Assembly (NCBI GenBank): GCA_022763165.1
Contig: JALEGO010000294.1
Location: forward strand, 1-13,324
Length of the DNA: 13,324 nucleotides
Direction: 5' to 3'
Origin: Flavobacteriales bacterium
GTDB taxonomy: Bacteria; Bacteroidota; Bacteroidia; Flavobacteriales_G; JALEGO01
In this document: positions 3,058 through 9,598 of the stretch, one piece after another
How the letters are laid out: every line of letters starts with the position of its first letter
Numbering within the stretch: the first letter of the stretch is position 1
Notes under the pieces: generated by a model
What the model was told of the DNA's origin: nothing
The model's input: only the letters and a program-made list of their open reading frames with translations
Databases searched by the model: none
Position numbers and translations under genes: made by a program

Positions 3058-3135
3058 TTGGTCTACGCTTCGTCAAGCTCAGCGTGACAGAACACTTTCG
3101 TTGCTAATGACCTGAGACTAATGAAGTCTCATTTC
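3058..3135. repeat. REP-like palindromic element, copy B. Its right end overlaps the GIY-YIG stop codon.
   Basis: ttggtctacgcttcgtcaagctcagcgtgacagaacactttcgttgct is identical to copy C at about 45 of 47 positions. The distal arm cctgagactaatgaagtctcatttc has diverged. Confidence 0.7.
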
Positions 3136-3413
3136 TTATTCGACAATTCCTTTAACAATTCAATATTTCCATTTATCAAAGCTTCTTTTTTACTCCTTTT
3201 CAAACCCTTTATTCTATTTTCCCATTTAATTGCTTCGCTTTCTAAGCTGAAATTCTGAGAATAGACCAATTCTACCGGCCTTCGATTATAAGTATATGCT
3301 GATACAAATTTTCCTATTTGATGTTCATTCAATCGATTGGTTAAATCAGATGTACATCCAGTATAATATGAACCATCAGAGCATTTTAGTATGTATACGG
3401 TTAAATGTGGCAT
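3129..3413 (-). CDS. Small GIY-YIG nuclease family protein of 94 aa, YhbQ/UPF0213-like
   Basis: ORF track 94 aa begins MPHLTVYILKCSDGSYYTGCTSDLTNRLNEH. It carries the GIY-YIG hallmark (VYIL..GSYYTG...R...H) and the conserved downstream E/N region. Size is typical of stand-alone GIY-YIG proteins. Confidence 0.85.
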   Translation of the reverse strand: MPHLTVYILKCSDGSYYTGCTSDLTNRLNEHQIGKFVSAYTYNRRPVELVYSQNFSLESEAIKWENRIKGLKRSKKEALINGNIELLKELSNKK

Positions 3414-3420
3414 GCACTAT

Positions 3421-3500
3421 TTGGTCTACGCTTCGTCAAGCTCAGCGTGACAGAGCACTTTTGTTGCTGAAGTCCTGAGCCTGACGAAGGGCTTTCATTT
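3421..3500. repeat. REP-like palindromic element, copy C, carrying the best-preserved 15-bp inverted arms (cttcgtcaagctcag / ctgagcctgacgaag, 14 of 15 complementary)
   Basis: Direct repeat of copy B immediately upstream of the GIY-YIG gene. The internal inverted repeat can form a stem of about 15 bp with a loop of about 29 nt. Confidence 0.7.
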
Positions 3501-3529
3501 AATGTTTCTTTATTTGACAATTTACTCAT

Positions 3530-3575
3530 GACTCATATTTGGCCTACGCTCCCTCGCTTCGTTCTTTCTCTTAGC
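3530..3575. repeat. Partial REP-like copy D (ctcatatttggcctacgctccctcgcttcg...tagctcagg)
   Basis: It shares the ctcatatttgg(t/c)ctac(g/a)c leader seen at 3031-3049 and a degenerate tagctcag block. Confidence 0.4.
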
Positions 3576-3590
3576 TCAGGAACCTAAATC

Positions 3591-3971
3591 TTATACCAAT
3601 TCATTGGCCTTCAAATCCTCAAGAAAGCGTGCTTGAAGGTCTGACATAAAACCTTGAATCACATCAGCCTCGGATTTCTGGATGCCACTAGACTCTTTTG
3701 CTACTTCTTCTAAGATTTCAATAAAGAAATTGTAGGCGGGGTTTGGACCAACTTCTTTACATCTCTGGAGTGCTTTTTGATAAACATCTTCCAAGTCACC
3801 CTTTTTCTTTACCTCATAATCAAAGGACCATTTGATTTCCTGAGCCCAAGCATGATTCTTTAACATTTGAGAGAGTTTTTCCTTTTCCTCAGGTTGAATC
3901 ACTCCATCAGCAATACATACTGCGTATAGCAATTCACCTAGCGCATCATTTAATTTTTCTTGATCTGTCAT
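3591..3971 (-). CDS. TerB-like (tellurite-resistance TerB / DjlA N-terminal superfamily) small cytoplasmic protein, 126 aa
   Basis: Two helical repeats carry the TerB-type acidic motif: LLYAVCIADGVIQPEEKEKL and FIEILEEVAKESSGIQKSEADVI. Compare the TerB aADGeIxxEEk pattern. The assignment is by eye only. Confidence 0.55.
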   Translation of the reverse strand: MTDQEKLNDALGELLYAVCIADGVIQPEEKEKLSQMLKNHAWAQEIKWSFDYEVKKKGDLEDVYQKALQRCKEVGPNPAYNFFIEILEEVAKESSGIQKSEADVIQGFMSDLQARFLEDLKANELV

Positions 3972-4007
3972 ATTTAAAGTTTAGTTATATCGTTGTTTTA
4001 GTTGTTC

Positions 4008-4142
4008 CTAGTTATCTCGTTTTTCAAAATTCTCGAGTTTTTTAATCTTGGTTCTTCTGATCGCAAGAAATATCAGGGCAATCAAACAAAAGCCCATGAA
4101 AATACCTTGAGAACCCATAATCAATTTTGGTAACCATTCCAT
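4008..4142 (-). CDS. Hypothetical 44-aa single-pass membrane peptide (MEWLPKLIMGSQGIFMGFCLIALIFLAIRRTKIKKLENFEKRDN). Its ATG lies 1 nt after the ybjQ-like stop.
   Basis: Manual translation. The hydrophobic core GIFMGFCLIALIFLAI is followed by a basic stretch. The arrangement stop(TGA 4144-4146)-t-ATG(4140-4142) suggests translational coupling. The ORF is below the track's size cutoff. Confidence 0.3.
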   Translation of the reverse strand: MEWLPKLIMGSQGIFMGFCLIALIFLAIRRTKIKKLENFEKRDN

Positions 4143-4143
4143 A

Positions 4144-4458
4144 TCAACTCAGTTTTACAGCGGTTCCGTAGGCTAGTATTTCTGAACAACCTTGCATAAC
4201 CATTGAAGTAGTCAACCGGACATTGATTATAGCATCTGCTCCTAGTCTTTTTGCATCATCTTTCATTCTTTGGAGTGCCTGTTCCCTTGACTGAGCTTGA
4301 AGCTTAGTATACTCTTCAATTTCGCCACCAATTAGGTTTTTTAAGGCTGCAAAAATATCGCGACCAAAGTTTCTAGCTCTAACCGTACTTCCTCTGGCTA
4401 CCCCAAGTATTTGGGTGACACTTTTTTGAGGAATATTATCTGTTGTTGTAATTATCAT
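4144..4458 (-). CDS. YbjQ family protein (UPF0145/DUF74, heavy-metal-binding-like), 104 aa
   Basis: MIITTTDNIPQKSVTQILGVARGSTVRARNFGRDIFAALKNLIGGEIEEYTKL...ILAYGTAVKLS is collinear with the conserved YbjQ pattern M.vtTt..ieg..i.eylGvV.Ge.v.gan..rd.fa..rdivGGr...Y...l...R..A...m...A..lGAnAvv.vr.d...........v.a.GTAVkl. Confidence 0.85.
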   Translation of the reverse strand: MIITTTDNIPQKSVTQILGVARGSTVRARNFGRDIFAALKNLIGGEIEEYTKLQAQSREQALQRMKDDAKRLGADAIINVRLTTSMVMQGCSEILAYGTAVKLS

Positions 4459-4560
4459 TGTCGTGTATTTTTAGTTAAACAATAGGTCAACCAATCATTC
4501 TTTTCTTGGTTTCTTTTTGTCAGCGCTAGGGGTTGGAACGATATCCTTTTGGTTTTTAGT

Positions 4561-4630
4561 TGCTGGCACTTCGTCAGTACTGCGAAGTTATTTTGCCATC
4601 CTAAGCTTGACGAAGGATAGGCCTTCTAAC
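4561..4630. repeat. Degenerate copy (E) of the REP-like palindromic element (cacttcgtcag ... ctaagcttgacgaagg)
   Basis: It shares the cttcgtca(a)g / ct.agc.tgacgaagg arms with the copies at 2929-3500. A gaagg-atag-ccttc mini-hairpin follows at 4612-4626. Confidence 0.45.
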
Positions 4631-4654
4631 CAAAAGATAAAGCGGAAGACCCGA

Positions 4655-4682
4655 CCCCGATATCCTTAAGGACAAATCGGGG
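4655..4682 (-). terminator. GC-rich hairpin (ccccgat-N14-atcgggg, inner ccttaagg palindrome) 23 bp downstream of the flotillin stop. Possible terminator or attenuator on the minus strand; the following T-tract is weak (ctttatctttt).
   Basis: A 7-bp perfect stem seen directly in the sequence. The U-tract is not contiguous with the stem, so the assignment is tentative. Confidence 0.3.
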
Positions 4683-4704
4683 TAGCGCCCAAATCCTTCA
4701 TCCA

Positions 4705-6801: not shown

Positions 6802-6853
6802 AATTTAATAGTTTTAGTTTGTTAAAAAATTCGTTTTACAATAAAAATCAGTG

Positions 6854-8312: not shown

Positions 8313-8705
8313 TTAATTTTTTGAGAACTCTATCAATTCCGATGAATACTCACTTAAGAGTAAACTCAAAGAATTGATGGATCCTTCTAATTCATTTAAG
8401 TCTAGATTTTCGAGTTGCAAAGTATCTCTAAAAATCAAGCGTTTTCCGCTTTCATCCAGAGCAAATGCCCCATGGACAATATCTCTGTTTTTCTGAAGGA
8501 GTTTGGTTAAAATCGTTTCATTCCCATTTAACTCTAAAATGAATTGCTCCATGATTAAAATGGGCTCCGCACATCCTATTACTAATCTGTTTATTCCAGC
8601 TTCTTCATCGTTTATTACTATTACTCCATCTTCAGCATTTTCATGGGTGATTGTGTAATCGAGATCGAGTAAATAGTTTTTCACTTTTTCAAAGTTGCTT
8701 TTCAT
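8313..8705 (-). CDS. YjfI/DUF2170 family protein (YbjN-like fold), 130 aa. This is the canonical upstream partner of the PspA homologue YjfJ.
   Basis: The 130-aa length and pattern GVIVIND.EAGINRLVIGCAEPILIMEQFI ... LLQKNRDIVHGAFALDESGKRLIFRDTLQLENLDLNEL parallel E. coli YjfI (LRITLAG.EELPVFVSLSD.QLVCAVNLW ... LLELNPAVPLSSFGKVGDAYVLFGAL). The yjfI-yjfJ order and spacing are conserved. Confidence 0.65.
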   Translation of the reverse strand: MKSNFEKVKNYLLDLDYTITHENAEDGVIVINDEEAGINRLVIGCAEPILIMEQFILELNGNETILTKLLQKNRDIVHGAFALDESGKRLIFRDTLQLENLDLNELEGSINSLSLLLSEYSSELIEFSKN

Positions 8706-8851
8706 GTATATAAATTATTGTTATTCAAAAATTTGCTTTAAAATTATATCTAAGCATTTAATTATCCAATACCACCCCGCTCAGGAATATTCTATGGCGG
8801 CATGAGATGAGCGCACATATATATTTTTATTTTCATTGTCGTGTTTTTTAC

Positions 8852-8859
8852 TAAATTTG
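8852..8859 (+). promoter_or_regulatory. Candidate Bacteroidota sigma-A -7 box (TAAATTTG = TAnnTTTG) for the XRE regulator gene
   Basis: Exact match to the Bacteroidetes -7 consensus TAnnTTTG, 62 bp upstream of ATG 8921. The operator palindromes lie between it and the start codon. Confidence 0.35.
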
Positions 8860-8871
8860 TTAGGTAAATAT

Positions 8872-8917
8872 ACTAAATATTTTAGTTAAAGCAAATATTT
8901 TTAGTAAAAAACTAAAA
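8872..8917. promoter_or_regulatory. Putative operator array. Palindrome ACTAAA-tat-TTTAGT spans 8872-8886 and palindrome TTTAGT-aaaaa-ACTAAA spans 8900-8916. A fifth ACTAAA half-site lies at 8850-8855.
   Basis: Perfect inverted repeats are visible in the sequence. Five copies of the same hexamer half-site fall within 67 bp, immediately upstream of the HTH regulator's start codon, in the divergent region shared with the psp/flotillin array. Confidence 0.5.
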
Positions 8918-8920
8918 TTT

Positions 8921-9598
8921 ATGTCATTTTTTGGTAAAAATATTAGAAAAATAAGAGGATTTAAAGGCCTTAGTCAGGCTGCGTTTGCAGAAATCTTTGA
9001 CGTGAATCGCTCTAACATAGGAGCCTACGAGGAGGGGAGAGCAGAACCTAAGATCGATCTCATCATAGAAATTGCTAAATATTTTAGCATATCCCTAGAA
9101 GATATGGTAGGGAAAGAGTTGACCATAAATGATATCAGCTCATTCAAGTTGTTTGACGAAGGACCTACAATTAAAAAGGAACAGGAGAGCCCTAAGATAT
9201 TACAACCGATCTTGGTGCGGGCGGTGGATCAGAATTACTATATCAATCATCACAGAGATAAACCAGCACTTGATCAAATGAAAATTAGCAATGACTTTGG
9301 GATTCTAACCTGCGACAGAATTTTTGAACTCACAAGTCCGCTTGATGGTTTAGGACTATCAGCAGGCGACTACGTACTTTGTGACTCAGAACTTGGATCT
9401 GAAGGTTTTGGCATCGGCATTTATAAGGAAGAAATCAAAGCTTTTCGAATTGAAGATATCCTGAATGAGGATTTCAGTGAGTCTTGGCGCATAAATGGTT
9501 ATATCAAAAAAAATCTTACTCACACCTCATTAGAAGCGCGCATGAATCATGTTGAGAAGTCCCTTATTGAATTGAAAGCCAGATTGAAGATCGATTGA
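8921..9598 (+). CDS. XRE-family (Cro/C1-type HTH) transcriptional regulator with a C-terminal LexA/CI-like (S24-type) beta-domain, 225 aa
   Basis: The N-terminus IRKIRGFKGLSQAAFAEIFDVNRSNIGAYEEGRAEPKIDLIIEIAKYFSISLEDM is a textbook HTH_3. The C-terminal SPLDGLGLSAGDYVLCD...GIGIYKEEIKAFRIEDI aligns by eye with LexA GDSMIDAGILDGDLLAV...VVARIDDEVTVKRL. Confidence 0.85.
   Translation: MSFFGKNIRKIRGFKGLSQAAFAEIFDVNRSNIGAYEEGRAEPKIDLIIEIAKYFSISLEDMVGKELTINDISSFKLFDEGPTIKKEQESPKILQPILVRAVDQNYYINHHRDKPALDQMKISNDFGILTCDRIFELTSPLDGLGLSAGDYVLCDSELGSEGFGIGIYKEEIKAFRIEDILNEDFSESWRINGYIKKNLTHTSLEARMNHVEKSLIELKARLKID

Follow-up and report, generated by a model that had tools for sequence, protein, structure and literature searches.

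Predicted CTAA-N5-TTAG operator boxes at the gene of an XRE/S24-like regulator divergent from a Psp-type operon in a Flavobacteriales contig

The control region and its boxes

In the present study, we analysed a window of 13,324 base pairs (bp), the entire contig of a Flavobacteriales metagenome-assembled genome (MAG), in which the gene of an XRE-type helix-turn-helix (HTH) regulator and an operon of the Psp type are transcribed divergently from a 215-bp spacer (Table 1). The spacer holds three copies, one of them imperfect, of the 13-bp palindrome CTAA-N5-TTAG, and a fourth copy lies within the regulator gene. We consider it quite probable that this is the control region of a conserved Bacteroidota module, in which the regulator represses its own promoter through these boxes. 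Bacteroidetes have no canonical LexA and instead use repressors that combine an XRE-type HTH with an S24 domain and have GGA-N5-TCC as their binding motif in some cases and CTAA-N5-TTAG in others (Sanchez-Osuna et al. 2021, PMC8565304); as described there, the CTAA motif was validated by electrophoretic mobility shift assay (EMSA) and mutagenesis for a protein of Pontibacter actiniarum, its own promoter included. The feature described here is a member of this published operator/repressor system, and its repressor represents an apparently non-cleavable subfamily, so far uncharacterised, which accompanies a Psp-type operon across Bacteroidota.

The sequence-only reading had noted five hexamers in the spacer, ACTAAA at 8850, 8872 and 8911 and TTTAGT at 8881 and 8900. 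All of them are present, and in dinucleotide-preserving shuffles of the 215-bp spacer itself (24% G+C) 0.33 such words were expected and none of 5,000 shuffles reached five. The arrangement proposed for them, two palindromes with N3 and N5 spacers placed between the -7 box and the ATG, had to be replaced by three tandem boxes and one unpaired word. The N3 palindrome survives, as ACTAAA-TAT-TTTAGT is box 2 (A-CTAA-ATATT-TTAG-T). The N5 palindrome TTTAGT-AAAAA-ACTAAA joins the right half of box 3 to the unpaired ACTAAA at 8911, and the ACTAAA at 8850 belongs to the perfect box 1, which encloses the -7 element. Two perfect boxes in the spacer compare with 0.006 expected (P = 5e-5, 20,000 shuffles); a search of the whole window with CTAANNNNNTTAG returned three perfect boxes (0.28 expected, 0/200 shuffles reaching three), namely boxes 1, 2 and 4, to which box 3 is added when one mismatch is allowed. 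Beyond the promoter and the site at +155 of the regulator gene, there is no perfect CTAA-N5-TTAG box in the 13-kb window. The centres of boxes 1 and 2 are 22 bp apart and those of boxes 2 and 3 are 19 bp apart, and the repeat scan found a 20-nucleotide (nt) direct repeat, 8849-8868 and 8871-8890, also at a distance of 22 bp. The ACTAAA/TTTAGT words are very probably CTAA-N5-TTAG binding sites for the neighbouring repressor. It was also observed that the 13-nt repeat GTTTTTTACTAAA / TTTAGTAAAAAAC brackets the array almost symmetrically around box 2; its flanks past the box halves are not conserved in L020, a locus of another Flavobacteriales MAG.

The ACTAAA at 8911 has no partner at N5 distance, is not conserved in relatives and is probably not an operator half. 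In sense orientation the same word, at 3980, 3997, 4470, 6813, 7530 and 8911, precedes six start codons by 2-26 nt, those of ybjQ and the regulator included, which suggests that single words reflect leader composition and not operators. As Bacteroidota lack Shine-Dalgarno sequences, this is probably A-rich leader composition, which would explain the orphans at 8911 and 4470. The 11-mer TTTTAGTTAAA does recur, as had been noted, with exact copies at 4469-4479 and 8880-8890. The second operator suspected at the former was rejected, because it is one half-site without a partner and ybjQ belongs to the conserved module in only two of 82 related loci.

The -7 box TAAATTTG of the earlier reading was confirmed by the sequence and agrees with the consensus TAnnTTTG. 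In the transcription start site (TSS) map of F. psychrophilum (PMC9723704), this sigma-A -7 box lies at -12 to -5, so that the regulator TSS is predicted near 8864. Box 1, a predicted operator, encloses this core-promoter element in the manner of autoregulated XRE/CI-type repressors. Likewise, the own-promoter boxes of the non-canonical LexA proteins have their counterpart in two perfect boxes and one with a single mismatch at <=70 nt from the ATG. Since box 1 contains TAAATTTG, autoregulation of the regulator gene from the boxes is well supported at the level of the sequence. The autorepression layout that had been proposed beside an XRE/LexA-like regulator thus holds, with the published family operator motif, the overlap with the -7 element and conservation upstream of relatives. 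A scan for sigma-70-type promoters and terminators, uninformative for Bacteroidota, gave three promoter-like sites against 3.5 expected.

For the comparison with relatives, an alignment of the regulator and 19 homologues was used to scan one genome per species, which gave 80 loci from many Bacteroidota families; together with two metagenomic loci (L001 and L002) and the window, 83 loci were available. Perfect boxes were found <=300 nt upstream of the regulator in 43 of these 83 loci, at 2.77 per kb compared with 0.018 per kb in the flanks. Conservation in orthologous regions, on which the sequence-only reading had made its operators depend, was evident from 69 boxes in the 83 upstream regions where shuffles predicted 0.84. 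A fixed layout of three boxes characterises 35 loci with a box at about -60, here called Flavobacteriaceae-type. In these, box A lies at about -92, over the -33 position; box B at -60 reads G-CTAATATTG-TTAG and encloses the -7 element TAATATTG or TAATTTTG; box C at about -19 (-17 to -20) is always G-CAAA-N5-TTAG-C (35/35). The window follows the same logic with tighter spacing, as it has a box overlapping the -7 element and a CAAA variant proximal to the ATG. L020 has one-mismatch boxes at the -70 and -48 positions of the window; GCTAAATTTGTT is conserved in L020 and L005, and an alignment of four distant loci has GCTAAATTTGTT, TACTA and TTAG in common.

The closest protein relatives, L001 and L002 (48% identity), keep the +155 box, lack ybjN-pspA and have only imperfect upstream boxes, and for these last two reasons they are of limited use as orthologous spacers. 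In both, the regulator is divergent from a shorter module with the homologues of the 224- and 698-amino-acid proteins and a 1614-amino-acid ATPase, and the regulator gene itself is followed by PLD-like and NUDIX/NrtR NAD-salvage genes. A scan of about 940 kb of flanking DNA found 16 further perfect boxes, none of them consistent across loci. Some of these flank boxes share a homologous coding position in ybjN, and others lie downstream of pspA in Tenacibaculum, where four loci (L031:4593, L058:4613, L065:4576 and L076:4538) have a perfect box about 100-180 bp 3' of pspA, near the next operon gene.

Other features of the spacer were recorded as well. A GC-rich patch (47% G+C, spacer 24%), CCAATACCACCCCGCTCAGGAATATTCTATGGCGGCATGAGATGAGCGC, occupies 8758-8815 between the divergent promoters and aligns partly with L020 (ACCCC..CTCA..AAT..TT); it contains no RNA structure above shuffles and no CTAA box, and may be bound by some other factor. 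Positions 8727-8741 and 8886-8900 form a 15-nt inverted repeat with 93% complementarity. It overlaps box 3 on the regulator side; on the psp side it overlaps the -7-like element and forms no box. The word TTAAAGCAAAT[A/T]TTT is found exactly 21 nt upstream of both divergent starts, each time in the orientation of its own gene.

Table 1. Genes and sequence features of the window
Feature	Position	Strand	Remarks
Regulator, 225 amino acids, XRE HTH and shortened S24-like C-terminal domain without catalytic residues	8921-9598	+	
CesT/Tir-like (YbjN-like) protein, 130 amino acids, first gene of the divergent operon	8313-8705	-	PF22550 CesT_Tir_1, E = 5e-54
PspA/IM30 family protein, 235 amino acids	7593-8300	-	PF04012, E = 6e-40
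Conserved protein, 224 amino acids	6854-7528	-	homologue in 58/82 loci
Conserved protein, 698 amino acids	4705-6801	-	homologue in 63/82 loci, ~55% identity
DUF3686/DUF7902 large ATPase, N-terminal 969 amino acids, truncated by the contig end	2-2908	-	DUF3686 E = 6e-184
Sigma-A -7 element TAAATTTG of the regulator promoter	8852-8859	+	consensus TAnnTTTG
-7-like element AATTTTTG on the psp side	8727-8734	-	22-29 nt upstream of the ybjN/cesT ATG
Three-box array (predicted)	8843-8912		perfect 13-nt inverted repeat GTTTTTTACTAAA / TTTAGTAAAAAAC at 8843-8855 and 8900-8912
Box 1, CTAA-ATTTG-TTAG, perfect	8851-8863		~-13 to -1 of the predicted promoter; encloses the -7 element
Box 2, CTAA-ATATT-TTAG, perfect	8873-8885		~+10 to +22 of the leader
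Box 3, CAAA-TATTT-TTAG, one mismatch	8892-8904		~+29 to +41
Unpaired ACTAAA half-site	8911-8916	+	5 nt before the ATG; no N5 partner; not conserved in relatives
Box 4, G-CTAA-ATATT-TTAG-C, perfect, core identical to that of box 2	9075-9087		coding-sequence nt +155, codons Ala52-Ser56

The divergent Psp-type operon

The gene neighbourhood was compared by tblastn with the window proteins at 82 loci. In 78 of them, from many Bacteroidota families, the regulator has a CesT/YbjN-like gene as its immediate divergent neighbour; 76 loci contain pspA, nearly always beside ybjN and 56-71% identical, and the downstream neighbours of the regulator are not conserved. The pairing of regulator and operon is a strong functional hint. 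An operon type with CesT/Tir-PspA, a three-transmembrane (3TM) protein, a band-7/flotillin protein and an AAA+ ATPase has been described (Ravi et al. 2024, PMC11237479), and the window fits it with CesT_Tir_1, PspA and the DUF3686/DUF7902 ATPase. The 90%-identity cluster of the regulator contains ANH61661.1, the psp-linked regulator of Dokdonia donghaensis, whose accession number directly precedes those of the exemplars ANH61662.1 and ANH61663.1 of Ravi et al. The operon-type section of that article mentions no divergent regulator, and Popp et al. (2022) scored same-strand neighbours only. The link between regulator and operon is absent from the available portions of Sanchez-Osuna et al. 2021, Ravi et al. 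2024 and Popp et al. 2022, and the literature searched contained nothing on the regulation of Psp-type operons in Bacteroidota.

It had been proposed that the boxes may also control the divergent stress operon. The pairing in the 78 loci speaks for this proposal; the 110 nt next to the ybjN start, in the window and in the other CTAA-type loci, contain no operator-like site above the shuffled expectation and speak against it. On synteny, we put direct control of the psp operon by the regulator at roughly even odds. The leading alternative, to which we give a probability only somewhat below that, is that the regulator autoregulates and has no transcriptional effect on the psp operon, so that the adjacency would reflect post-translational coupling, with Psp proteins in control of the regulator, or co-inheritance and the real targets would lie elsewhere. 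Apart from the empty psp-proximal segment, it is favoured by distance, because the centre of the nearest box is usually 99-144 bp from the psp -7-like element (130 bp from box 1 in the window), occasionally 72 or >200 bp, without any fixed value. In Flavobacteriaceae, moreover, TAATATT[GA] occurs in both divergent promoters and only that of the regulator sits in a box. The divergent arrangement conserved across families next to unconserved downstream genes speaks against this alternative. So do the Hymenobacter clade, where an operator-like G-CTCA-AAAAA-GTAG-C recurs over the psp-side promoter element, and Aquimarina, in which the spacers are about 80 bp longer and an extra perfect box again comes to within about 105-114 bp of the psp element.

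The position of the psp-side -7-like element in the window is analogous to that of the conserved elements ACTTTTTTG, TAAATTTG and TAGATTTG of the relatives. In Flavobacteriaceae loci (e.g. L024, L031 and L058), ACTTTTTTG followed by TAATATTA or TAATATTG is seen 26-73 nt upstream of the ybjN ATG. In most Flavobacteriaceae genera this psp-side element amounts to a 10-bp palindrome, GTAATATTAC. It is similar to TAATATTG, the -7 element on the regulator side, but lies outside any CTAA box, and may be either the psp promoter or the site of another factor.

The intragenic box and the binding protein

Box 4, which lies outside the region covered by the sequence-only reading, spans codons of the HTH domain at about +212 to +224 from the predicted TSS. 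A perfect box at this +155 position was present in 45 of the 83 family genes, and only five perfect boxes were found elsewhere in those genes. For the codon test, genes were chosen by their amino acids alone (A52, F55 and S56; n = 46). Ala52 is GCT in 45 of the 46, whereas GCT makes up 46% of the codons in three control alanine columns and 42% of those of the remaining alanines; Ser56 shows AGC and AGT in a ratio of 44:2, compared with 15:65 at control AGY serines of the same genes. The flanking isoleucine codons and the spacer codons vary freely, and the other synonymous sites of these sequences are well mixed. The GCT and AGC choices complete the extended palindrome G-CTAA-N5-TTAG-C, which is also seen in upstream boxes of relatives. 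From these sequence comparisons we conclude that synonymous codon choice preserves the +155 box, and most likely this box is a functional auxiliary operator, which would act by looping or as a roadblock.

The competing explanation, in which the +155 box would play no part in regulation and would merely follow from the conserved peptide I-A-[NK]-[YH]-F-S being encoded in AT-rich genomes, appears to us unlikely, with perhaps a quarter of our belief behind it. It is true that the HTH domain conserves residues 51-56, that AAA/AAT, TAT and TTT are favoured where codon usage is AT-rich, and that the AGY or TCN class of a serine changes slowly, the control serines keeping their class too. The gene of the validated P. 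actiniarum LexA has no perfect box at +155 and its Ala52 is GCG. Against this explanation stands the fixation of positions that could change freely, that is, the third base of Ala52 and the AGC of Ser56, next to isoleucine and spacer codons that do vary. In addition, the left half of the site follows the operator type in Hymenobacter and Roseivirga, lineages with CTCA operators, where it reads G-CTCA-... and residue 53 changes from N/K to Q/H. The other CTCA-type lineages (Cyclobacteriaceae, Rufibacter and Pontibacter) do not take part in this change; they have CTAA or CCAA at +155 or have lost the site.

The regulator itself, 100% identical to a protein recorded for this MAG, was examined by family and structure searches. 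Its HTH covers residues 5-61 (Pfam HTH_3 at residues 8-61, E = 3.6e-10), and only XRE-type HTH families match. Over 67 residues the HTH is 48% identical to the EMSA-validated P. actiniarum protein WP_025606010.1, and RS-x-[IV]-GAYEEGRAEPK is common to both. Of the 20 relatives in the alignment, 14 are matched by Peptidase_S24; the profile of the family can be aligned with the catalytic domain of LexA (hhalign 89%), and full-length Foldseek matches of the regulator include lambda CI (3bdn) and 186 CI. Residues were compared with the C-terminal alignment given in PMC8565304 (KASAGY, RAFEISGDSM and VFKRI). The scissile Ala-Gly is absent in 83 of 83 proteins, the window reading N-Y at the K-A-S-A-G-Y column; the catalytic Ser is replaced in 80 of 83, mostly by Glu or Asp (SP-- in the window); the catalytic Lys is absent in all 83 and usually Arg (AFR in the window). 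The LexA-like character ascribed to the regulator therefore stands for the HTH, probably extends to the fold of the C-terminal domain, and fails for the cleavage site and the Ser-Lys dyad. As these are missing, the proteins form a paralogous, apparently non-cleavable subfamily, and judging from the sequence the regulator is apparently a paralogue of the Bacteroidetes non-canonical LexA and not a functional LexA-type autoprotease. Psp-linked paralogue and cleavable LexA occur together in Hymenobacter edaphi, H. sp. B81, H. gummosus and Pontibacter sp. MBLB2868. The BLASTP homologue list of PMC8565304 includes the subfamily members WP_137092443.1 and WP_035325255.1; we found no mention of the catalytic-residue loss or of the psp link in the available text of that article and its supplements.

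It may be asked which protein would occupy the boxes. The operator type co-varies with the recognition helix of the psp-linked protein itself: CTAA operators go with [KTN]R[AGS][TSNL][LIV], a group that takes in VNRSNI of the window and IKRSLV of the validated P. actiniarum protein, and CTCA operators go with ARPSV. The CTCA-type boxes of Hymenobacter are the perfect palindrome G-CTCA-N5-TGAG-C. An alternative that we regard as improbable is that the boxes are bound by a cleavable LexA of the CTAA type encoded elsewhere, and not by the psp-linked regulator. The box motif is identical to the published LexA operator (PMC8565304), and the contig is 13 kb of a MAG, so that such a LexA elsewhere could bind the boxes. 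In the tree file of that article, Tenacibaculum and others are labelled with two L2 (CTAA-group) homologues and M2, read as the CTAA motif/regulon, which makes cross-talk conceivable. The box layout is kept, however, in Dokdonia, Aquimarina and Leeuwenhoekiella, although the SOS regulon of Flavobacteriaceae is under a regulator of the GGA-N5-TCC type (PMC8565304). In Dokdonia donghaensis DSW-1, listed there with one L1 and one L2, the psp-linked protein WP_035325255.1 is one of the two homologues of Table S9, presumably L2. Where Hymenobacter and Pontibacter genomes have both paralogues, the operators of the psp-linked gene are of the CTCA type and co-vary with the recognition helix which that gene encodes. 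The layout in the three genera and the helix co-variation together suggest, as far as sequences can, that the regulator binds its own boxes and that no separate LexA does.

As a related observation, in Hymenobacteraceae (Hymenobacter, Solirubrum) the proximal operator G-CTCA-N5-TGAG-C lies at about -33 from the ATG and the helix starts with A-R-P-S-V; the cleavable LexA is present in these genomes too. The loci with G-CTCA-N5-TGAG-C are L013-L015, L021, L022, L033, L037, L039, L040, L048, L049, L054, L061, L072 and L073. The CTCA operator with the ARPSV helix looks like a specificity switch that would insulate the two paralogues.

That the palindromes are RNA hairpins in the 5' leader of the regulator, serving translational or attenuation control, and not DNA operators, is very improbable. 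The predicted TSS does precede boxes 2 and 3, and ACTAAA and TTTAGT arms pair with each other in the minimum-energy fold predicted for the leader. At -5.6 kcal/mol the leader folds no more stably than its shuffles (z = -0.47; psp-side strand z = +0.71), the Rfam scan of the whole window gave zero families at gathering score, conservation is limited to the 4-nt half-sites with a fixed N5 and free spacers, and box 1 is upstream of the TSS. Chance AT-rich palindromes, which the 24% G+C of the spacer and the window-wide count of ACTAAA (17 vs 10.6 expected, 11/200 shuffles reaching 17) might suggest, can be dismissed with near certainty on the local shuffles (P = 5e-5 for two perfect boxes) and on the 69 boxes upstream of the 83 regulator genes (0.84 expected).

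Proposed model, related systems and distal genes

In the model proposed here, a dimer of the regulator would bind the 13-bp CTAA-N5-TTAG boxes, three of which are arranged in tandem about two helical turns apart. Occupancy of box 1 would cover the -7 element and the predicted start, with boxes 2 and 3 in the leader; RNA polymerase would then be blocked, giving negative autoregulation. Box 4 would most likely serve as an auxiliary operator that either forms a loop with the promoter boxes or acts as a roadblock. Since the catalytic residues are lost, repression is probably not relieved by RecA-stimulated self-cleavage and would respond to some other signal; to judge from the invariant neighbourhood, this is probably stress at the envelope or membrane, which the neighbouring Psp-type proteins would pass on. 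Besides binding by the regulator itself, we infer the inducing signal, the looping, the control of the psp operon and the TSS.

Several points weigh against this reading, in addition to the empty psp-proximal 110 nt and the 13-kb limit of the contig. The C-terminal domain of the window protein is shortened and falls below the Pfam S24 threshold, and the regulator is only 34-48% identical to its nearest relatives. The predicted TSS is consensus-based. Boxes are spaced at 22 and 19 bp in the window compared with 32 and 42 bp in Flavobacteriaceae. Box 4 and the promoter boxes keep no conserved phasing (183-224 bp in the window vs 173-247 bp in Flavobacteriaceae), and the P values of the codon test (1e-14 and 1e-18) ignore shared ancestry. 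The co-variation of helix and operator may reflect just one or two evolutionary events.

A more far-reaching version of the model is offered only tentatively, as we hold it to be possible and not likely. It sees in the regulator a LexA-derived pseudo-peptidase that was recruited as the dedicated regulator of a PspA/CesT/flotillin-type membrane-stress module across Bacteroidota and would be released, without RecA-triggered self-cleavage, when the CesT/YbjN-like protein or PspA binds its dead S24 domain; the operator in its own HTH codons would keep residues 52-56 co-evolving with specificity (CTAA with N/K53, CTCA with Q/H53). What sets this repressor apart from the published prototype is its link with a Psp operon, the catalytic loss and a conserved, predicted operator inside its own gene. 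The analysis gives a testable candidate regulator and a defined operator for a membrane-stress module that is widespread in marine and soil Bacteroidota, and cultivable hosts exist in Dokdonia, Tenacibaculum, Aquimarina and Hymenobacter. It also provides a case of a LexA-type repressor re-purposed after duplication with loss of the catalytic residues. Its operator was retained where the SOS regulator uses another motif, and was changed to CTCA-N5-TGAG in Hymenobacter, whose genomes carry a cleavable LexA homologue 77-80% identical to the validated CTAA-binder. Furthermore, it is an example of a predicted operator kept by synonymous-codon selection within the gene of the repressor.

Among known systems, the non-canonical LexA of P. 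actiniarum (WP_025606010.1) is the nearest. It shares with the window subfamily the penta-helical XRE HTH (PF01381) with a near-identical recognition stretch, an apparently homologous S24-type C-terminal domain with the framework RAFE... and ...E[IV]WE..., the same 13-bp palindromic operator with at least one box in the own promoter, and the restriction to Bacteroidota. It differs in possessing the Ala-Gly, Ser and Lys that the subfamily lacks, and in its neighbours RecQ, S8 peptidase and pirin; the partner of the subfamily is a CesT-PspA-type operon and not SOS genes, none of which is present in the 13-kb window. The subfamily, unlike the P. actiniarum gene, has a conserved perfect +155 box, and it coexists with cleavable LexA in the same genomes.

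The lambdoid CI/C2 repressors combine an HTH with an S24 domain, apparently the architecture of the window regulator as well, and their tandem operators likewise overlap the own promoter at whole helical turns. They bind cooperatively with long-range looping; their second operator region is kilobases away, whereas the predicted auxiliary site of the window is about 200 bp away and inside the repressor gene. Furthermore, the window regulator is chromosomal and apparently non-cleavable, and there are zero phage genes in the window or the 82 related loci. A prophage CI-type immunity repressor was rejected on the neighbours (CesT/PspA-type, methyltransferase and AI-2E transporter genes), on the synteny in 78 of 82 loci and on PADLOC, which gave a generic HTH only.

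In E. coli, pspF is likewise divergent from the pspA operon, and its sites, about 100 bp upstream of the psp promoter, overlap its own promoter and mediate self-repression; Jovanovic et al. in 1997 reportedly found that the upstream sites by which PspF autoregulates also serve the pspA promoter. PspF belongs to the AAA+ activators of the enhancer-binding type that work with sigma-54, whereas the window regulator is XRE/S24-like and the psp-side promoter element looks sigma-A-like. A PspF-type regulator was rejected, since no sigma-54 AAA+ domain or Fis-type HTH was found and only XRE-type HTH families match. The control of pspF-pspABCDE in E. coli is outlined by Ravi et al. (PMC11237479). The same source describes ClgR of Actinobacteria (clgR-pspA-pspM-pspN), an XRE/Cro-type HTH regulator coupled to pspA like the window regulator. 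ClgR structures are among the HTH structural matches of the window regulator, but ClgR, from another phylum, lacks an S24-like domain, shares an operon with pspA and uses another motif.

Intragenic auxiliary operators are known from lac O2 in lacZ and gal OI in galE. These too are full-strength operators in coding sequence, at most a few hundred bp downstream of the promoter operators. Box 4, as a predicted operator, differs from them in lying in the repressor's own gene, in the HTH codons, where protein sequence and site constrain each other.

As for the distal genes, the DUF3686/DUF7902 ATPase is the distal component of the psp-type module; a 1614-amino-acid version of it comes after the 698-amino-acid homologue in L001 and L002. 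Since its frame of 969 codons continues past the contig end, it did not appear in the list of open reading frames. The 698-amino-acid protein had been labelled a flotillin. It has no sequence match in Pfam, NCBIfam, PDB sequences or PADLOC, and its band-7/flotillin label comes solely, by analogy, from the operon-type description of Ravi et al. (PMC11237479). The 224-amino-acid protein, with zero matches in the same searches, may by the same analogy be the 3TM YqiJ/YuaF-type partner of that description. A one-mismatch box is seen at 6805-6817, just upstream of the 698-amino-acid gene. Past this gene, the minus strand continues with ybjQ, a weak TerB-like gene and a small GIY-YIG gene (94 amino acids), which at 3129-4704 separate it from the ATPase; the two adjoin in L001 and L002, and the three intervening genes look like an insertion into the module. 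Finally, the 246-bp spacer at 4459-4704 holds GC-rich inverted repeats, e.g. ccccgat...atcgggg.

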